Shown one piece after another: positions 8,425 to 46,839 of a stretch of 64,000 nucleotides of DNA; within the stretch, counting starts at the first letter, position 1, and every line of letters starts with the position of its first letter. The notes under the pieces were generated by a model. That model made no database searches and was not told the origin of the DNA. It saw nothing but the letters and a program-made list of their open reading frames with translations. The translations under genes and the position numbers were made by a program. The stretch is from a virus (Duplodnaviria; Caudoviricetes). The stretch covers positions 9,633 to 73,632 of the IMG/VR virus record IMGVR_UViG_2767802067_000003, one strand, 5' to 3'.

Positions 8425-10002
8425 GTGGTCGACTTCGCCAATGCGCTGGCACTGGCCGCATCTCGCCTGGAAGGCCTGTCACAGGCGACGGATCGCTTCC
8501 CGACCCCCCACGACCTCGCGAAGGCGCTCGACCCGCGGGTAGTCACCACGCCCGCGCTGGCACTGCTCGACCGCCACCTCATGGACGTCGCGGCCGGAAA
8601 GACCCGGCGCCTGATCTGGACGATGCCCCCGCAGGAAGGCAAGTCGCAGCGCGTCAGCCGTACCTTCCCCGCCTGGCTTCTCGCCCGCAACCCCGACCTG
8701 CGGATCGCGATCGCCAGCTACGAGTTTGGCACCGCCCGCCGGTGGGGCCGCGCCATCCGCAACGACATCTCTGCCAACACAGACCTGTTCGGGCTGCGAG
8801 TGCGCCATGACACCGGTGCAGCCCACGAATGGCAGCTCGAGAACCATGACGGCGGCGTCTACTCCGTCGGCATCGCCGGCGCCCTGACCGGCCGCCCAGT
8901 CGACGTGCTGATCATCGACGACCCGATCAAGGGCCGCGCTGAGGCGGAGTCGCTGGTGCAGCGGGAGAAGGTCTGGGACTTCTGGGTCGACACCGCACGC
9001 ACGCGTTTCGGTCCCAATACCGCCGTCATCGTCGTCTTGACCCGCTGGCACGAAGATGACCTCGCCGGCCGGCTCTTGGAGGCAGACAAGGCGGTCGGGG
9101 AGTGGACCTACGTCAACATCCCGGCGCAGGCCGAGACCGCTGACGACCCGCTCGGCCGCGAGCCCGGCGAGTACCTGGTCTCCGCCCGCGGCCGCGGCGT
9201 CGCTGACTGGGAGTCCACTAAGCGGGACGTCGGCGCCCGTACCTGGACCTCGCTCTACCAGGGCCGCCCCGCGCCGGCCGAAGGCGGGCTGTTCCGCCGC
9301 GACCACTGGCGCTGGTACCAGGCCCCGAAGGCCGACCAGCGCGCCGATGGCTCGTACTGGATCCCGAACGCCACCGAGGTCATCCAGTCCTGGGACATGA
9401 CGTTCAAGGACAGCAAGAGCGGTGACTTCGTCGTCGGACAGGTCTGGGCGAAGATCAACGGCCAGGTCTACCTCATGGACCAGGTCTGCGACCGCCTCGA
9501 CTTCCCCGCCACCTGCCGCGCCGTCACCGCTCTTTCCAAGCGCTGGCCGCAGGCCCACGCGAAGTTGGTCGAAGACCGGGCGAACGGGCCTGCTGTCATC
9601 TCACAACTGCGCTCCACCGTGCCCGGGCTGATACCGGTCACCCCGAAGGAGTCCAAGTTCGCGCGCGCCTCCTCCGTCGCGCCGTTCGTGGAGAGCGGCG
9701 TCGTCTGGCTTCCGGCGCCCGAGATCGCCCCTTGGATCGGCTCCTTCCTCGAAGAGACCGCCGGCTTCCCGAACGCCTCGCACGACGACCAGGTCGACGC
9801 GATGACGCAGGCCCTGCACCGGCTCCTCGCCGGATCGAACAGCGCCGACCGCGCCATGGGCTGGCTCGACTCCTACACCTCGATCCCCCGACCCGCACCG
9901 GGAACCCCCCTGGACTACCTCGATGGGAGGGCACCGCATGGCCCGATGGCCCTTCCCCCGCAAGAAGACCCCGACCCCGACGCCCCAGATGACGGGCAGT
10001 GA
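8425..10002 (+). CDS. terL: Terminase large subunit
   Basis: MPPQEGKS Walker A, LIIDDPIK Walker B, QSWDMTFK and HDDQVDA nuclease motifs. Confidence 0.95.
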   Translation: MVDFANALALAASRLEGLSQATDRFPTPHDLAKALDPRVVTTPALALLDRHLMDVAAGKTRRLIWTMPPQEGKSQRVSRTFPAWLLARNPDLRIAIASYEFGTARRWGRAIRNDISANTDLFGLRVRHDTGAAHEWQLENHDGGVYSVGIAGALTGRPVDVLIIDDPIKGRAEAESLVQREKVWDFWVDTARTRFGPNTAVIVVLTRWHEDDLAGRLLEADKAVGEWTYVNIPAQAETADDPLGREPGEYLVSARGRGVADWESTKRDVGARTWTSLYQGRPAPAEGGLFRRDHWRWYQAPKADQRADGSYWIPNATEVIQSWDMTFKDSKSGDFVVGQVWAKINGQVYLMDQVCDRLDFPATCRAVTALSKRWPQAHAKLVEDRANGPAVISQLRSTVPGLIPVTPKESKFARASSVAPFVESGVVWLPAPEIAPWIGSFLEETAGFPNASHDDQVDAMTQALHRLLAGSNSADRAMGWLDSYTSIPRPAPGTPLDYLDGRAPHGPMALPPQEDPDPDAPDDGQ

Positions 10003-34047: not shown

Positions 34048-34086
34048 TGTCCGATACGGTCTTGCACTAATAGGAGCGCCCAGGCT
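34048..34086 (-). repeat. 39-bp inverted repeat, left copy
   Basis: 35/39 identical to the reverse complement of 46801-46839. Confidence 0.85.
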
Positions 34087-34108
34087 CCCTGAAAGCTTCT
34101 GAGAACTG

Positions 34109-35495: not shown

Positions 35496-35860
35496 GGCGA
35501 AGACAGTAAACCCACAACTACCCATCGTAGAGCCAGAATTGGGCCCGTGCAATTTCGTATCTCGGGAGCGGGCGATTGTGTCCGGAACCGCTTTCCCCGC
35601 TGGCTGGAACCCGACCCGACGGCCACCCGCGATGGCCCCAGACACCGATCCGCGTCGCGTCGTCCGCATCCGCTCAGGACTGCCATGGGCCGGTACAGTA
35701 GGCCGTGGCTGGACACGCACGCCGATCGTCGCTGCCGCCCCGTCCCACGCCGGGAGAGCACCGTTCGACCAAGGGGTCCCACCCGACGCCCGTGGTGAAT
35801 TCACCGTGCCCTTCTCCGGGCGGGGTGCGTGGGCGACCCGCCGGATGTGAGAGCACCGTT

Positions 35861-36808
35861 GTGACCAAGCAGAACCAGTCCCGTGCCGGCCGCCGTGCCC
35901 GTAAGGCGCAGCAAGACGGCTCCACTGCCCAGTACACCGAACTGCTGCGTGCTGGAGGCAAGGAGCCGGACGCTCGGCCAGCCGTCCCGATCGCGTCAGC
36001 TACGCCGGGCGGTGAAGGCAAGACGACCCACGCCGTTGACCTTCGAGCGGGCCTGGCTGAGTACGGCCAGCGTGTAGTCCTGGTCGACCTCGACTCGCAG
36101 AACGACGCCCGGCTCAGCGCGGCCTCTCAGGAGGAGCCAGCTGGCGGCTGGCCCTACCGGCTGGTCGATGCCCAGTGGCAGGGCTGGCTCACTGCGGGGA
36201 ACGGACTGTACCGGGCGTCCTCCAGCCTGAACAGGCCGGGCTTGGAGGAGCCGTGGCCCTACGCCCGGATCGTCGCCGAGCGCGGCCCCGTGCGCCCCGT
36301 CAACCACCCGGTCGAGGGCGACGACTCCACGGAGAGGCTGGCCGCGCTGTGGGACAAGGCGGGTCGGAAGGCGGTCGCGTCCACCCTGGTGGCGCTGTAC
36401 CGGGCGGTGCTGCGCTTTCCGGCGTCCCTCTACGGCCCGCATCCGCTGACCTCCGGGCGGGAGGGCAGCTGGGAGTCCGCCCGGCTCTTGAACCTGGCCT
36501 ACACCGTCGGCGGCGACCTGGATGATCGGCCGAAGCGGTTCGACCCGGAGGTCGCCGATGGCGTCGCGGACGTTCTGGAAGGCTGGGTGCGGCGTCCCGA
36601 GACGTACACCGAGGTCGCGGAGAACCTTGCTGGCATCTTCGGCCGATACGCCGACCGTGCCGGCGGCTGGACGAAGGTTGCCGATCAGTGGCTGCAGCCC
36701 GGCGCCCGCGCCGGCCACGATCCTGACACCGTCTTCGCGGTCGGCTCCTGGCTGCTCTTGGGCTCCTCCGAGCATCTGCAGGCGTTCCTGGACTCCGCGC
36801 ACCGGTAG
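35861..36808 (+). CDS. Hypothetical protein containing a ParA-like Walker A fragment
   Basis: PGGEGKTTHAVDLRAGLAEYGQRVVLVDLDSQ followed by unrelated sequence. Confidence 0.65.
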   Translation: MTKQNQSRAGRRARKAQQDGSTAQYTELLRAGGKEPDARPAVPIASATPGGEGKTTHAVDLRAGLAEYGQRVVLVDLDSQNDARLSAASQEEPAGGWPYRLVDAQWQGWLTAGNGLYRASSSLNRPGLEEPWPYARIVAERGPVRPVNHPVEGDDSTERLAALWDKAGRKAVASTLVALYRAVLRFPASLYGPHPLTSGREGSWESARLLNLAYTVGGDLDDRPKRFDPEVADGVADVLEGWVRRPETYTEVAENLAGIFGRYADRAGGWTKVADQWLQPGARAGHDPDTVFAVGSWLLLGSSEHLQAFLDSAHR

Positions 36809-39265: not shown

Positions 39266-39299
39266 TTAGCCTCGTATATCTGGCAATATACGAGGCAAC
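39266..39299. other. loxP-like recombination site (13-8-13)
   Basis: TTAGCCTCGTATA-TCTGGCAA-TATACGAGGCAAC; arms are inverted repeats (11/13); 10/13 and 9/13 identical to the loxP arms. Confidence 0.8.
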
Positions 39300-39350
39300 C
39301 GCTGTGAGAGGGCTTCCCTCGCAAGCACCGTTTTCCGGCAGGAGGCCATC

Positions 39351-39707
39351 GTGGCGACGTCGACCGAACCCGGGACGCCGCTCGGGCGCCTGCTGGACGA
39401 GCTGGCCGGCTTCGTCCGGGCCCGGGTCGCCGAGCGTACCGCGGACCCCGAGCGGCCGGCCCCCGAACGCGAGCACTTCACCCACCTGCTCCCGCGGCTC
39501 GACCAGGTCCTCGCCCACGCCCACGACAGGGGCGCGCTCCAGCAGCTCCACGCCCTGCGCCTGTTCCGGGAGATGTCGCTGCTCTGGTACGGCCACGACG
39601 AGCACCCCGACAACCCGTGGCTCGAACAGCTCGCCACCACCGACCCCGAGGCCGCGCTGCGCCAGCTGCGGGACGTCCAGGACCGGGTCGACCGCATGAC
39701 AGACTGA
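39351..39707 (+). CDS. Hypothetical protein (DUF6221-like)
   Basis: LDELAGFVRARVAE...LWYGHDEHPD. Confidence 0.6.
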   Translation: MATSTEPGTPLGRLLDELAGFVRARVAERTADPERPAPEREHFTHLLPRLDQVLAHAHDRGALQQLHALRLFREMSLLWYGHDEHPDNPWLEQLATTDPEAALRQLRDVQDRVDRMTD

Positions 39708-39763
39708 TCACCAACATCGCTCTCGCGCACCGCAGTTGAGCCGACCGAACAGGAATCCAGCCC

Positions 39764-40534
39764 GTGCCGTCCGAACCGTCCGGCCGCCCCGCCGCCGCCG
39801 CCGCCGACCAGCTTCACGCCTTCGTCGGCTTCGTGCGCTCCCGGCTGCACGAGGAGCTGGCCGCCCCCGGTCTGCACCACTCCACCCGGCGCGCCCTGCA
39901 GCGCCGGCTGGCCCTGGTTGGCGAGATCGCGGACCAGGCCGACGGCACGGCCCCGGCCTCCCTGATGGGCCGGGCGGCGAACGGCGTCGAACTGGTCGAC
40001 CTCGCCCAGCGCTGGCGCGACCACCCCGACTACCCCGGCACCCGCACCACCCCGGAGGCGGCCGCGCCCGGCCGGGAGCTGCCCGCCGCGGTGACCCACA
40101 TCTACGAACGCGGCATCACCGCGGATCTGCTGTCCGAGGTCGGCGGCTACCCGGGCCTGCACGAGGAGGCCCGGACCGAGCTCGCCGACAACCACCCCTG
40201 CCGCCGTGCCGAACCCACCGCGCCCGTGCCGGTCACCGTCACCTCCGACGGCACCGGTTTCCTCACCGTCCGCGCCGAGATCCGCTGCACCGACCGGGCC
40301 TGCCGGATCGAGGCCGCCGCCGTCGCCCGCTACGAACCGCTGCTGGCCGCCTACGAGGTGGCGCGGGAGTCGCTGCGCGGCGCCGACCTGCTGCTGCAGC
40401 AGCCCAACCTGGTCACCACCCCGGACCCGGAGCAGCTCCGGCGGCAGTGGGCCCGGCGGGAGAAGGCCATCCGCGAGACGCTGCGCACCGTGATCGACAC
40501 GCTCGCCCCGCACGCCGCCCCCGCCGCCGAGTGA
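39764..40534 (+). CDS. Hypothetical protein (DUF6221-like)
   Basis: FVGFVRSRLHEE...LAQRWRDHPDY. Confidence 0.6.
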   Translation: MPSEPSGRPAAAAADQLHAFVGFVRSRLHEELAAPGLHHSTRRALQRRLALVGEIADQADGTAPASLMGRAANGVELVDLAQRWRDHPDYPGTRTTPEAAAPGRELPAAVTHIYERGITADLLSEVGGYPGLHEEARTELADNHPCRRAEPTAPVPVTVTSDGTGFLTVRAEIRCTDRACRIEAAAVARYEPLLAAYEVARESLRGADLLLQQPNLVTTPDPEQLRRQWARREKAIRETLRTVIDTLAPHAAPAAE

Positions 40535-40626
40535 ACCCGACCCCGGCCAACGGGCCCGCCGGACGCACCCCGCCAGCCGCCTTCGTGCTGTTCCCGTTCC
40601 GCTCACACCCCGTCAAGGAGACCCGG

Positions 40627-40953
40627 ATGACGTACGACGACCCCGAGGACCGCGCCGAAGCCGAGGCCCAGACCAGGCAGCGGCAGGCCGCCGACCTGGA
40701 GCACATCGCGGCCTACTACAGGCTGGAGCGCCGCCTGGGCATCACGGTCGCGCTCGGCGGCCGGGTCCGCCACGACGGCCGCGAAGGCGTCATCGTGGAC
40801 ACCGCCGGCCAGCGGCTCAAGGTCATGTTCTACGGCGACCAGCAGGCCAGCATCTGCCACGCCACCTCGCAGATGGAGTACGAGACGGCTACCGGCTGGA
40901 TCACCGCCACCCCCGTCCCGGACCCGTGGGCCGCCGGCCCGGCCGCCGCATGA
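40627..40953 (+). CDS. Hypothetical protein with SH3/KOW-like core
   Basis: AAGGAG RBS; GGRVRHDGREGVIVDTAGQRLKV. Confidence 0.65.
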   Translation: MTYDDPEDRAEAEAQTRQRQAADLEHIAAYYRLERRLGITVALGGRVRHDGREGVIVDTAGQRLKVMFYGDQQASICHATSQMEYETATGWITATPVPDPWAAGPAAA

Positions 40954-41510
40954 GCGTGACGGACAACGAGTCCGCCGCCGCCCGCGCGTTCTGGGCCGAG
41001 GGCGAGCAGGTGGTCCCGGCACTGAGAATCCGTCCACCCGAGAACGCCACCGAGCAGGCCCTGCTCGGCTGGATGAACATGCACATCACCATGGAACGCG
41101 AGGCGAACCGGCCAATCAGCGGCTGGGCGTACCGGTCCGTGTTCGAGCTCGTCCTCGAACACGGACGCTGGTTCAACCCGGTCAGCCTCCCTGCAGCCAT
41201 CCCGCGTGGCCCGGAGAGGGAGTGTTTTCACAACGCGGCCGCCATCGAGCGGGCGCACCCGCACCTGCGCTACGTCGAGGGCTTCGCGATCGTTACCGGC
41301 AGCCCGGTGGCTACCGCCCACGCCTGGTGCACCGACGGCGACGGCAACGCGATCGATCCCACGTGGACTGAACTCGGCGAGGACACAGCGTACTTCGGCA
41401 TCCCGTTGGCCCCGACGCTGCGCCCGAACCCCCGGTTCAGCAGCGGCGTCCTCGAACGCCCCGAGACCCTGTACCCGCTGCTGCAAGACGGGCTGACGGC
41501 CAGCACCTGA
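40950..41510 (+). CDS. Papain/transglutaminase-like Cys-His-Asp protein, paralog 1
   Basis: ECFHNA...YVEGFA...HAWCTD..G.AIDPTW. Confidence 0.7.
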   Translation: MSVTDNESAAARAFWAEGEQVVPALRIRPPENATEQALLGWMNMHITMEREANRPISGWAYRSVFELVLEHGRWFNPVSLPAAIPRGPERECFHNAAAIERAHPHLRYVEGFAIVTGSPVATAHAWCTDGDGNAIDPTWTELGEDTAYFGIPLAPTLRPNPRFSSGVLERPETLYPLLQDGLTAST

Positions 41511-41536
41511 ACAGCACCGACCAGAGAGGCACTTCC

Positions 41537-42640
41537 ATGGAGCAGTACCCGCACGATCACGCCGAAGAACTGGAGCGCGCCGGGTACCGTGACCGGATCC
41601 ACCGGCTTCACCAGGTCATCGCCGCGCGCGTGAGCGACCACCGCGTGGCCGGCGAGGCCGTCGACGCGGTGGTCGCCCGCCTGGCGGCCCGTTCCGTGGA
41701 GAACCTGCTGAGCGAGGCCACGCTTCTCGGCGAGGGCGCTGCGGCGGACGGCTTCACCGAGACGGTGGCGCTCCACCAGCTGGAGACTCTCCTCGACCGG
41801 GCTGCCCGGCGCGCGTGGCCCACCGAGGCAGCGCCGTTGGACGACATCGCCCGCCTGCGCAAGGACACCAACGTGCAGGTGGCCGCGCTGCTCGCCGGTC
41901 GGCAGCCCGGGCCGTCGGCCGTGCGAGTCCGCGACCAGGTCAACGAGCTGGCCGGCTTCATCAACCGCCGCGCCCAGGAACCGGTCCACAACACCGCCGA
42001 AGGCCTGCACTCGGGCCTCGGCCAGATCCTGCGCACCACCTCCTACGCCCACGGAGCCGTGGACACGGCACTTGCCGCTGGCCGCCTGGACTTGGCCGCC
42101 AAGCAGTTGCGCCACCTGGTCCAGCAAGCACAGAAGTGGGCCGATCAGGCGGAGTACCCGTCCGCTCTGGTGGCTGACCTTCTGCGGACCGCGGAAGCGG
42201 CCGATCCACACAACGAACCCGCGCCCGGCCCGGTCGTTCCGGAAGCAAGGACCGCCCAGCGGGCCGTAGCGGGCAGTCCCGCGAAGAAGATCACGCTCGC
42301 TCAGGCTGAGCGCCTCTTCCGCGCGATGGGTCTGGCCATCGGCAGCGACGGCCAGGAGGGCTTCACCTTCCGGGCCCGCGGCGGCCGCGACGGCTCGCGG
42401 GCAGTCAAGTCCTCCCACCAGATCGAGGTGCGGTACCGCCTCGCCGGGGGCTACACCCTCATGGGCAACGACCTCGACGGCCTCCCCGAGGTGATCGAGC
42501 ACTACCGGTGGGCCGTCGAGAAGGCCCCTCAGCACGGCTACACCGTGACCTGGAGGCCAGCCAACGTCTGGATGGAAGTCACCCGCACTCCGGTTGCCCC
42601 CGAGACGCCCGCCGACCGACCGCAGGAGGCCGCATCGTGA
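41537..42640 (+). CDS. Hypothetical protein (367 aa)
   Basis: GAGG RBS, GC3-rich. Confidence 0.7.
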   Translation: MEQYPHDHAEELERAGYRDRIHRLHQVIAARVSDHRVAGEAVDAVVARLAARSVENLLSEATLLGEGAAADGFTETVALHQLETLLDRAARRAWPTEAAPLDDIARLRKDTNVQVAALLAGRQPGPSAVRVRDQVNELAGFINRRAQEPVHNTAEGLHSGLGQILRTTSYAHGAVDTALAAGRLDLAAKQLRHLVQQAQKWADQAEYPSALVADLLRTAEAADPHNEPAPGPVVPEARTAQRAVAGSPAKKITLAQAERLFRAMGLAIGSDGQEGFTFRARGGRDGSRAVKSSHQIEVRYRLAGGYTLMGNDLDGLPEVIEHYRWAVEKAPQHGYTVTWRPANVWMEVTRTPVAPETPADRPQEAAS

Positions 42641-43203
42641 CCGGCGCCGCCGACGAAGCCGAGCAGAAGCTGCGGCACTGGGTGGACACGTACGCCCAAC
42701 TCCACTCCGGTGACGAGAGCTGGCGCTTCCGTAGTTTTGCCGCGCTCGTTGCCGCCTTCGGAGTCCTCTACCACCCTGCCCCCTGGCCGGCGGATCAGCC
42801 CCGGGGGCGGCTGGGCCGCTGCTTCGAGGAGGCCAGCAAGTACGCCGACGCCACCGGCGCCACGTACGTCGAGGGGTTCGTCCTGGTCCCGGACGCCCCG
42901 CTGATGTTCCCGGTCTTCGAACACGCCTGGTGTCTGACACCTCAGGGCACCGTGGCCGACACGACCATCCCCGATGGCGGCGCCGTCCTCTACCTCGGCC
43001 TGCCGCTGCACGCCGCGTTCCGCCGCACCGCCCAGGCCCGGCGACGGACCTGGGCGGTGCTCACCTACGACACGGACAATCTCCTAGCCGGCGTCAACGA
43101 CGTAGTCCTGAAAGCTGGCCTGCCACCGGGCGCACTGGCCCTTCCGAACACACCTTCACCGCCCCCTGGTGGGCCTGGCCCCGTCGTACAGGAGGTTCCG
43201 TGA
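42637..43203 (+). CDS. Papain/transglutaminase-like Cys-His-Asp protein, paralog 2
   Basis: RCFEEA...YVEGFV...EHAWCL...VADTT..YLGLPL. Confidence 0.7.
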   Translation: MTGAADEAEQKLRHWVDTYAQLHSGDESWRFRSFAALVAAFGVLYHPAPWPADQPRGRLGRCFEEASKYADATGATYVEGFVLVPDAPLMFPVFEHAWCLTPQGTVADTTIPDGGAVLYLGLPLHAAFRRTAQARRRTWAVLTYDTDNLLAGVNDVVLKAGLPPGALALPNTPSPPPGGPGPVVQEVP

Positions 43204-44543
43204 CCACCCTCGATCAGTCAACTCCCGCCGAGGTCGTCGACGCCGAACTGCTGGACGACGACGAGCAAGCCCTTCCCGCAGTACGCGAGCCCCTGGGCTT
43301 GGACCTCAGCGACTTCACCCGGGACACCGTGCTGGTCGCCGGGCGGCCGATCCCGGCCGCCTTCGTCGCGCCGCAGTACTCCGCCGCGGACTACGTCATC
43401 TCCGAGGACGTCGCCGAGCTGATCGAGGCGGCCCGGCCGGAGAACACCGAACGCAACCGGCGCAGCCAGATCGGCCTGTTCCAGCGCTGGTGCGACGACC
43501 GCGGCCGGGTCGCCCTGCCGTGCACCACCGCGACGCTGATCGAGTACATCGGCGGTCTCATCCAGCGCGGCCTCGACCCGGACACCATCGCGGCCCACAA
43601 GAGCACGGTCGTCACCTGGCAGGAGGAGGAGACCCCGGGCAACACCCGGCCCGGAACCCGGCAGGTCTCTGCGATGATCGCGGCGTACCGGGCCAGGTGG
43701 AGCCGCACCAAGACCGACAAGCAGTCACCGGCGATCCGCGAGGTCGACCTGGAGCTGATGGTCGCGGTCTGCGACGAATCCGGTCGGCCTGCCGACCTGC
43801 GCGACGCGGCCATCGCCTGCCTGGGCTTCCACCTGCTCACCCGTCGGATCGAGTTGGCCAGCCTGCTCGTCACCCACGTCACGCTGGAGCGCGATGGCAT
43901 GCACGTGCGGCTGGTGGACCGCAAGACCCACAAGGACGGCACGGTCTTCGAGGCTTGGATCCCGGCCCGGGACGACGCCCCCCATATCTGCCCCGTCCGC
44001 CGGGTGCGGGCCTGGCTGGAGTACGGCCGCCTGATCCACCAGCCGCAGGACCAGGCGCTCTTCCGGGCGTTGGACAAGGCCGGCCGCCTGGCCGTGCGCC
44101 TCACCCCGCAGACCCGACCCAAGCACCCCGACGGCACCGACAAGCAGGACCGCGAGCTCACCGCAGAGGACTGGACGCGGCTGTCGATGCTCTCCGGCGA
44201 GGCCATCAACAAGTTCGTCAAGGCCCTCGCCAGGAAGGCGTACGCCAAGATCGCACACCTCACCGAGGAGCAGCGCGTCGGGCTCGGCCACAACGCGCTG
44301 CTCAACGAACAGACCGCCTCCTCCGTCACCTCGCACGGCCTGCGGGCCGGCGGGGCAACCGAGCTGTACGAGTCGGACGTGCCGGAGGACGTTATCGCGA
44401 TGCTCGGTGACTGGGCCAAGGGGTCCGCGGCGATGAAGCGCTACTTCCGGAAGATCCGGACCAGCGGTGAGAACGCCTGGGCGGTCGCCCGGCAGGCCCG
44501 GGAGAGGATGCGGCTCGCGGCGAGCCAGACGGTCGTCGCGTAG
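43200..44543 (+). CDS. Cre-like tyrosine recombinase
   Basis: Cre-type N-domain (FQRWC...ALP.....IEYI..L.QRGL.PDTI); catalytic R (LLTRRIEL), K (RKTHK), HGLR, W (LGDW), Y (MKRYFR). Confidence 0.92.
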   Translation: MTTLDQSTPAEVVDAELLDDDEQALPAVREPLGLDLSDFTRDTVLVAGRPIPAAFVAPQYSAADYVISEDVAELIEAARPENTERNRRSQIGLFQRWCDDRGRVALPCTTATLIEYIGGLIQRGLDPDTIAAHKSTVVTWQEEETPGNTRPGTRQVSAMIAAYRARWSRTKTDKQSPAIREVDLELMVAVCDESGRPADLRDAAIACLGFHLLTRRIELASLLVTHVTLERDGMHVRLVDRKTHKDGTVFEAWIPARDDAPHICPVRRVRAWLEYGRLIHQPQDQALFRALDKAGRLAVRLTPQTRPKHPDGTDKQDRELTAEDWTRLSMLSGEAINKFVKALARKAYAKIAHLTEEQRVGLGHNALLNEQTASSVTSHGLRAGGATELYESDVPEDVIAMLGDWAKGSAAMKRYFRKIRTSGENAWAVARQARERMRLAASQTVVA

Positions 44544-45063: not shown

Positions 45064-46002
45064 ATGAGCGGCGGTGAGGCCTTCGACCACTTGAACGACG
45101 TCCTGCGGGTCGCTCTCGCGGACCGTGACATCCACACCAGCGAGAAGCGAGGCGAGCGCCTCAGGGTGACCGTGGCCACCGTCGAGCGTGGCCTGACGTT
45201 CCTGGCCCGTCCCCTGCTACGGGTTCCCGGTGCCCTGCTGGACGAGCAGGTCGTCGGGTACCACGAGTGGCCGCTGACCCTGCTCGGGCACATCGCCGCC
45301 GGGCAGTGCCGGGCGAAACCGCCCTACAACCGCCTGAAGCCCTCCAGCGTCCGGTACATCATGGACGGCCTGGCGGACCTGAACAGGGCAGCCGGGAACC
45401 GCCCGTACTGGTGGGAGGCCAAGGGCATGCGGCCGTGGGCCGGCCACACCAAGAACCCGGTCGCTCCGCTGGAGCACGTCGTCCTGCGCCGCGAGTTGAG
45501 CGAGCCCGGCCCCCAGCGCTGGGAGCCGTACCGGCTGCGCCTGCTCGCCGCCGTCGAGTTGCTGTGGGACACCGGGACGACGCCCAGCGGCCTGGTCGCC
45601 GCCAACGTGGACGACTTGTCCGCTGACTTCTCGCGCATTCGACTCGCGTGGACCGCGCCAGGGCGGCACACCGAGCGGGTGGAGCAGGAGTGCCTGCTGC
45701 ACCCGAACACGACGGCCGCGTTGAAGATGTGGCTTCCGGTGCGAGACCAGGTCGTACAGGACACGCTTCGCCAGGGCCTGGAGGGCTCCCGGGCGCTGTT
45801 CATCACCCTGCGGCACACTACGGGCGCGCAGAAGGACGGATCGCCTCGGCAGGTCCCGCCCGGCGTCAGGATCCTGCGCACCGGCCTGGACACCGCTTGG
45901 CTGTCGTGGATCCGGAGAGCGAACAGCCACCACGCCGGGGAAGCCGGATGGCCGATCGCCACCGACTTCTACCGGGTCGCCCGGGGAGACGGCCCTACAT
46001 AG
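45064..46002 (+). CDS. Degenerate tyrosine recombinase-fold protein lacking catalytic residues
   Basis: [27 protein letters not shown]...ALKMWL..R...ALFIT; no catalytic Arg, HxxR or Tyr; TACGCT just upstream suggests a leaderless mRNA. Confidence 0.65.
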
Positions 46003-46736: not shown

Positions 46737-46800
46737 CACCAGCCCCCGACTAACCTCTACCGCTTCCCAGTAGCTGATCCGGCTTGGGAAGGCGACAGGC

Positions 46801-46839
46801 AGCCTCGGCGCTCCTATTAGTGCAACACGGCATCGGACA
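46801..46839 (+). repeat. 39-bp inverted repeat, right copy
   Basis: AGCCTCGGCGCTCCTATTAGTGCAACACGGCATCGGACA; includes one arm of TAGTGCAAC...GTTGCACTA (46818-46852). Confidence 0.85.

Follow-up and report, generated by a model that had tools for sequence, protein, structure and literature searches.

The closest described relatives of the locus analysed here are the MrpA/mrpS system of the Streptomyces coelicolor plasmid SCP2 and the Cre/loxP system of P1. MrpA/mrpS was described by Warth, Haug and Altenbuchner in 2011 and by Warth and Altenbuchner in 2013, and the mrpS site has reportedly been dissected by mutation. MrpA is reported to resolve multimers of the Streptomyces coelicolor plasmid SCP2* and to recombine oligonucleotide-sized mrpS in Escherichia coli (PMC3218068, PMC4685060, PMC6486577). 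Further Cre-type pairs, identified through palindrome searches, are Dre/rox, VCre/VloxP, Vika/vox, Nigri, Panto and the YR series (Jelicic et al, 2023; PMC10250229). Here, we describe a predicted pair of this type in a 64,000-nucleotide stretch of viral DNA (IMG/VR record IMGVR_UViG_2767802067_000003, positions 9,633 to 73,632), which we refer to as the window. It consists of a 34-bp palindrome at positions 39266-39299 and a tyrosine recombinase encoded at 43200-44543, and we consider it likely that the enzyme acts on the palindrome as its cognate, lox/mrpS-like core recombination site.

The palindrome reads TTAGCCTCGTATA-TCTGGCAA-TATACGAGGCAAC, exactly as and where a preliminary description of this DNA had placed it, and its 13-bp arms, separated by an 8-bp spacer, are symmetric at 11 of 13 positions. 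The strict inverted repeat within the 34 bp is a perfect 11-6-11 element, GCCTCGTATAT-CTGGCA-ATATACGAGGC (39269-39296). The same description had counted a single copy in the window and equated the inner 7 bp of each arm with those of loxP; both statements hold, with one copy in the window and also one in the genome, and with the inner 7 bp recovered in a comparison with the loxP arms read from the P1 record (left, ATAACTTCGTATA; right, TATACGAAGTTAT; overall identity to the window arms 10/13 and 9/13). Within the 64-kb window, the site is the sole AT-rich inverted repeat with arms of at least 10 bp. In the whole 8.78-Mb genome, its 11-mer arm has no other occurrence at 0 mismatches, and the pattern TATA-N8-TATA occurs once. 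Since generic GC-rich 13-8-13 palindromes are frequent (26 on C13, the contig that the window belongs to), the rarity lies in the sequence and context of the site, not in palindromy as such. A blastn search with the site and its flanks against a plasmid collection gave no match, and pattern scans of genome contigs with 14 specified bases returned chance matches only, in unrelated taxa. The sequence itself speaks against a protelomerase-type site, because the CTGGCA spacer is not self-complementary, as hairpin formation would require.

Two other palindromes were noted in passing. Outside the window, C13 carries a second AT-rich 13-8-13 palindrome, ATCACGGTACACA-AGTTACTG-TGTGTACCGTGTG (C13:34375-34408), whose sequence is unrelated to that of the lox-like site. 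Furthermore, the metagenome contig Ga0170475_111269991 (L284, 1415-1442) has 10-bp arms identical to those of the window around the spacer TCTCTACA; this contig is AT-rich and 1.8 kb long, with no recombinase within reach, and may represent chance or an unrelated system.

The 447-residue recombinase matches the Pfam family Phage_integrase (PF00589) above its cutoff, with only the C-terminal catalytic region recognised. It contains the catalytic set of Cre, including the Trp in place of the second His, as initially proposed: R215-x-x-E218, K242, H379-x-x-R382, W405 and Y415. An alignment of 35 homologs shows no variation at R215, R216, E218, H379 and R382 and very little at K242, W405 and Y415, and the HxxR, Trp and Tyr residues align with Cre H289, R292, W315 and Y324. 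A sequence search of the Protein Data Bank (PDB) returned Cre and engineered Cre variants as the only credible matches (E ~8e-4). An AlphaFold (AF2) model built from the 35-homolog alignment has a mean predicted local distance difference test score (pLDDT) of 80 and is predicted to adopt a two-domain Cre-like fold; in Foldseek, ranks 1 to ~33 are all Cre or its engineered variant Tre (E 3.6e-12, template modelling score 0.67 on target length, ~360 columns), followed by XerH (E 5.5e-6), XerA (6.6e-5) and lambda Int (~1e-4). Within the Kitasatospora clade, the recombinases measure 436-465 amino acids. Downstream, the open reading frame (ORF) at 45064-46002 showed no recombinase likeness by Pfam (E up to 1), by PDB sequence search or by BLASTP against the neighbouring recombinase.

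About 22 close homologs of the recombinase (58-77% identity) are found in Kitasatospora, mostly on contigs of 120-230 kb, one of which is labelled as a plasmid. Loci were obtained for 13 of them, and 12 are evaluable, one (L028) being cut at a contig end. In nine of the 12 (L023, L024, L025, L026, L029, L030, L033, L034 and L036), the 13-8-13 site recurs upstream of the recombinase gene with unchanged orientation. At one extreme (L025, L033, L034) no gene intervenes between site and recombinase; at the other (L029, L030), about six or seven do. In L029, two identical substitutions are present in both arms, TTAACCGCGTATA and TATTCGCGGTAAC. The length of the spacer is constant at 8 bp; in the Kitasatospora sites its positions 1-5 are variable, and its 3' end reads C[A/G][A/G]. 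The spacer TCTGGCAA was found three times, including the window, alongside AGGTCCAA, AGCATCAA, TTCTCCAA, AGTTCCAG, ATCTCCAA, AGGTCCGA and AGTTGCAA. Searches of four related genomes located the 10-mer arm nowhere but at the site.

More distant homologs (31-42% identity) on Streptomyces plasmids, on an IMG/VR viral contig and in the Streptomyces phage Gilgamesh have matching sites, whose arms differ (GCCCCGTATA, ACCCTCGTATA, TACCTCCTATA, CGCCTGCGATA, GCCGACAATA) and are each mirrored in the partner arm; the genome loci L010, L011, L016 and L018 add more arm variants, mirrored likewise. In each of the nine Streptomyces plasmid records examined, a 13-8-13 site precedes the recombinase gene, or the short operon to which it belongs, by 15-200 bp. 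In pFP11, the site TTAGCCCCGTATA-ATTTCCCT-TATACAAGGCTAG lies 15 bp before the coding sequence. On the plasmid of Streptomyces sp. NBC_01689 (NZ_CP109593.1; L046, 2377-2410), the perfectly symmetric site TCAGCTTCGTATA-ATTTCCCT-TATACGAAGCTGA, in which the inner 9 bp of each arm equal loxP, lies 19 bp before the homologous integrase gene, and on the NA02950 plasmid the site heads four small genes, after which the integrase follows. The isolated, 129-kb phage Gilgamesh (MN234216.1; L038, 2399-2432) has the same arrangement: the site GTAGCCGACAATA-AGTGCAAT-TGTTGTCGGTAAT, four small genes and then the "tyrosine integrase" (gene 32), which is 31% identical to the window enzyme. The IMG/VR viral contig carries the 10-bp arms of the window, yet its recombinase is just 34% identical. 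Altogether, the site is kept with the recombinase gene in more than 10 distant loci besides the nine close ones, and a similar palindrome accompanies the recombinase from 77% down to ~31% identity, the opposite of the lack of such palindromes near homologs that the preliminary description had named as counting against its proposal.

The geometry and orientation of the site are fixed, it follows the recombinase through changes of every neighbouring gene, and its arms change in step on both sides, so the palindrome fits a binding site of the enzyme itself. The proposal of the preliminary description that site and enzyme form a cognate pair is supported by this co-occurrence and co-variation and by Cre being the best structural match. 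The site also has both features that Jelicic et al (2023; PMC10250229) found to be shared by active Cre-type sites, a (G/T)A(T/G)A motif beside the spacer and, at position 7 of the arm, a T.

The system, which the preliminary description had called new, is not of a new kind, since MrpA/mrpS of SCP2 is a characterised relative. In BLASTP, the recombinase aligns over its full length with the SCP2 integrase SCP2.07c, known in the literature as MrpA (26% identity over 369 amino acids, E 3e-15). By sequence it is nearer to MrpA than to Cre, to which its match is shorter (23% identity over 137 amino acids, E 4e-6; ~18% in a structure-based alignment). In a FastTree phylogeny with Cre as the root, the Kitasatospora group and the Gilgamesh/Streptomyces-plasmid group together form a clade whose sister is MrpA. 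Both MrpA and the window enzyme are tyrosine recombinases of actinomycetes that have Trp where the second His would stand, and they share an N-terminal EVVDAEL-DD motif. The mrpA gene of SCP2 adjoins parA, and the window recombinase likewise stands in a ParA context. Just upstream of mrpA there is, similarly, a candidate 13-8-13 site, CTGGCTCTTGATA-ACGTTCCT-TCTCTAGAGCCAG. However, the arms of the two sites are unrelated (GCCTCGTATA versus GGCTCTTGATA), and the window enzyme is larger (447 versus 371 amino acids), with an N-terminal extension and an insertion of ~45 amino acids between the Lys and HxxR regions. Moreover, the window site is separated from its gene by 3.9 kb and six genes, and its phage-plasmid-like host contrasts with the 31-kb conjugative plasmid SCP2. 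The pair differs from characterised members in enzyme size, arm sequence, the intervening 3.9-kb operon and its phage-plasmid-like host.

The likeness to Cre/loxP extends from the 34-bp 13-8-13 site, with 7 identical inner bp per arm, to the catalytic set including Trp. P1 is a plasmid-prophage with a partition system, which the phage-plasmid-like element of the window resembles, and its layout lox-cra-cre, on one strand and with a gene in between, resembles the upstream, same-strand position of the window site. Differences include the length of the enzyme, which is 104 amino acids longer than Cre, the spacer sequence and the high-GC actinomycete host. The system thus appears to resemble Cre/loxP in mechanism and architecture, and by descent it would belong with the MrpA/mrpS-like enzymes of actinomycete plasmids and phages. 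Rec-seq found that, counted from the centre, the half-site preferences of Cre are strongest at positions 5, 10 and 16. At these three positions the window arms equal loxP, as they do overall at positions 5-11, 13, 15 and 16. With the bases that Cre most prefers being identical here, it is questionable whether the pair is orthogonal to Cre, and cross-reaction with Cre appears to be a real possibility.

Other systems are more distant. Xer recombinases (XerC/XerD at dif, cer and psi) also resolve dimers at a single site per replicon, and the window core can likewise be read as 11-6-11. Xer systems use two paralogous enzymes plus FtsK or accessory sequences. The window, in contrast, has a single element-encoded enzyme and a symmetric site, and its structural matches to Xer proteins are much weaker. 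Lambda-type integrases differ in that the genome of the window has no attL/attR or second arm copy, and lambda Int is a weak structural match. The survey of Jelicic et al (2023; PMC10250229) followed the same discovery logic, looking for palindromes with 8-bp spacers in the vicinity of Cre-like genes; it kept proteins of 300-400 amino acids and searched for sites within 1 kb of the gene, and its main text makes no mention of Streptomyces or Actinobacteria. The window pair, with 447 amino acids and a site 3.9 kb away, falls outside these filters, of which length is a search filter and not a mechanistic criterion.

The window lies at the end of contig C13, which is 154 kb long and has a GC content of 70.1%, compared with ~73% for the large contigs. 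Besides the recombinase, the window encodes terminase, portal, tape-measure and lysis genes together with a ParA-type partition ATPase, and ParA/ParB genes adjoin the recombinase also in L030, L033, L043 and SCP2. The host element looks like a phage-plasmid-like Kitasatospora element; C13 as a whole may be a single large plasmid, a cointegrate with a phage-plasmid, or a chromosome arm that ends in a prophage.

From these sequence comparisons, we infer binding, strand exchange, a biological role and autoregulation as follows. As in Cre/loxP and MrpA/mrpS, each 13-bp arm would be occupied by one recombinase monomer, synapsis of two sites would give a tetramer, and strand exchange would take place inside the asymmetric 8-bp spacer. 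The role is most likely single-site multimer resolution (or cyclisation): with one site per replicon, multimers of the plasmid or phage-plasmid would be reduced to monomers ahead of partition by ParA, and a possible further job is to cyclise phage DNA on entry. As the site heads an operon that ends in the recombinase gene, it is probably also an operator, at which the bound recombinase would autoregulate the operon.

Several observations weigh against the site being a cognate recombination site with this role. The right arm has decayed to 8-10/13 symmetry in several loci (L023, L026, L030). No site is present in the available DNA of three close homologs (L027/G200, L035 and L031/L032), and CGTATA-N8-TATACG is absent from the whole G200 genome. 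Because these three homologs have no site, some recombinases would be orphans or users of an unrecognised site. Two of them are in chromosome-like contexts, L027 on a 1.95-Mb contig (G200:C2) and L035 among sugar-transport genes, with amylases among such neighbours, and may be orphan or domesticated copies. Seven of the nine plasmid records are circular, whereas two are annotated as linear, and linear replicons need no dimer resolution. For C13 itself, a search of its ends found neither an overlap nor terminal inverted repeats, and its first 90 kb (1-90000; L285-L289) carries genes for a lanthipeptide dehydratase, a GH15 glycosidase and a triple-NUDIX protein as well as many ORFs without a family match. 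Finally, the position at the head of the operon is equally expected of a pure operator.

The last point leads to the alternative that the palindrome is an operator or promoter element only, bound by the recombinase as a repressor or by another regulator, with recombination taking place elsewhere or not at all. In its favour, the site always heads a transcription unit, 15-230 bp before the first start codon, its flanks are conserved, and the Streptomyces sites have TATAAT across the junction of arm and spacer, with hardly any variation in the spacer ATTTCCCT; resolvase-type systems such as Tn3 res/TnpR, moreover, commonly unite operator and recombination functions. We nevertheless regard a pure operator as unlikely. 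A 34-bp element with 13-bp arms and a fixed, asymmetric 8-bp spacer has the core architecture of a tyrosine recombinase site and is far longer than typical helix-turn-helix operators, it tracks the recombinase and not the first gene of the operon, which varies by locus, a simple scan found no sigma-70-type promoter at the site, and the homolog MrpA recombines a short site. The two readings are hard to separate, since any operator to which the recombinase binds would double as its recombination site. An attP-type core, used by an integrase to insert the element into the host chromosome, would agree with the annotation of relatives as "integrase" and with the chromosome-like contexts of G200 and L035. 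This is very unlikely, as the genome contains a single intact, near-symmetric site with no attL/attR halves or second arm copy, the arm is similarly confined to the site in the four related genomes, no site accompanies the chromosomal homologs, the structure is much closer to Cre than to lambda Int, and the element encodes ParA.

A function of the palindrome in RNA, as a leader hairpin serving attenuation, processing or stability, and not as a DNA site appears highly improbable. The perfect 11-bp stem with a 6-nt loop would be stable, and the symmetric double changes in L029 would keep the pairing. However, the Kitasatospora left arm is essentially invariant while the right arm has uncompensated mismatches, unlike a selected stem; the loxP-like arm sequence is kept among loci whose proteins are 26-35% identical, and the palindrome is not followed by a T-run. 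Barely credible is the idea that the recombinase inverts a 12.7-kb block via 44-nt inverted repeats (34048-34091 and 46796-46839) and that the palindrome is unrelated to it. These repeats are real and form a unique pair flanking the recombinase block, but none of the related loci has them, in contrast to the palindrome, which is kept together with the gene, and on reading their sequence they contain only a short 5-6-5 inverted repeat and no recombinase-type core.

A cognate recombination site, the reading that we prefer, also invites a bolder extension, to which we give only a small chance. The loxP-type arm (..C-T/C-T-C-G-T-A-T-A at the spacer) could be an ancient code common to P1 Cre and a large actinomycete MrpA-like family, in which case Cre and these enzymes would each act on the sites of the other, and the slot of 0 to ~7 genes could be an integron-like landing pad, serviced by the recombinase, that captures circular DNA with a matching site. 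The cargo genes form a shared pool that is shuffled between elements (window 39351-43203, L026, L029, L030). No relic or secondary sites, as integron-like capture would predict, were found within the cargo region, so cassette capture is without support.

The window thus provides a computationally well-supported, natural predicted recombinase/site pair from an actinomycete of 70% GC, with a panel of relatives with differing arms and spacers at hand. Such pairs are raw material for genome engineering in Streptomyces and related antibiotic producers, in which codon usage and expression can limit E. coli-derived enzymes. That the inner arms nearly equal those of loxP, even in a different phylum, bears on any claim of orthogonality to Cre. 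Because the site can head a multi-gene operon, palindrome searches within 1 kb of proteins of 300-400 amino acids miss such pairs. Furthermore, the pair adds a Cre-like maintenance module to the poorly known 120-230-kb Kitasatospora elements that unite phage structural and partition genes.

The coordinates of the site, of the operon that it heads and of the partition gene are collected in Table 1. Analysis of the GC content at third codon positions (GC3) in each frame, together with GTGA start/stop overlaps, bore out both a same-strand gene run that begins behind the site and ends in the recombinase and the count of six cargo genes between them. The run from g1 to the recombinase lies on one strand and is translationally coupled, and the site lies upstream of the recombinase gene, at the head of the same operon. 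Searches of Pfam, NCBIfam and PHROGs linked none of the six cargo proteins to a family with a known function, and g1, g2, g4 and g5 matched no family.

Table 1. Features of the predicted recombination locus (window coordinates).
Feature	Position	Strand	Evidence and remarks
Left arm, 13 bp, TTAGCCTCGTATA	39266..39278	.	Invariant in 8/9 related Kitasatospora loci with site; 10/13 equal loxP left arm
Spacer, 8 bp, asymmetric, TCTGGCAA; presumed crossover region	39279..39286	.	8 bp in every Kitasatospora site
Right arm, 13 bp, TATACGAGGCAAC	39287..39299	.	11/13 symmetric with left arm; 9/13 equal loxP right arm
Right flank (cgctgtgagaggc-tt-ccctcg...), possible leader/promoter-proximal element	39300..39331	+	Kept across Kitasatospora loci whichever gene comes next
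g1, 118 aa (amino acids), function unassigned	39351..39707	+	GC3 frame; homologs behind site in L026, L029, L030
g2, 256 aa, function unassigned	39764..40534	+	GC3 frame
g2b, 140 aa	40531..40953	+	GTGA overlap with g2 stop codon; GC3 frame 0; PHROG 2730 (function unknown)
g3, 194 aa, paralog of g5	40926..41510	+	GC3 frame
g4, 367 aa, function unassigned	41537..42640	+	GC3 frame
g5, 188 aa, paralog of g3	42637..43203	+	GTGA overlaps at both ends; AGGAGG ribosome-binding site
Tyrosine recombinase, 447 aa, Cre/MrpA-like	43200..44543	+	Pfam Phage_integrase; Foldseek; GTGA overlap; AGGAGG ribosome-binding site
ParA-type partition ATPase (plasmid-maintenance context)	35705..36808	+	Pfam AAA_31, CbiA; 2.5 kb upstream

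Within g3, there is a perfect 13-6-13 palindrome, GTCCGTGTTCGAG-CTCGTC-CTCGAACACGGAC (41135-41166), whose sequence is unrelated to that of the lox-like site. The 44-nt inverted repeats considered above are 89% complementary with the core CTTGCACTAATAGGAGCGCC, have only these two copies in the genome, and enclose ParA, the lox-like site, the operon and the recombinase within the 12.7-kb block. They could be operators or promoters at the borders of this block, or the ends of an inserted or invertible segment.

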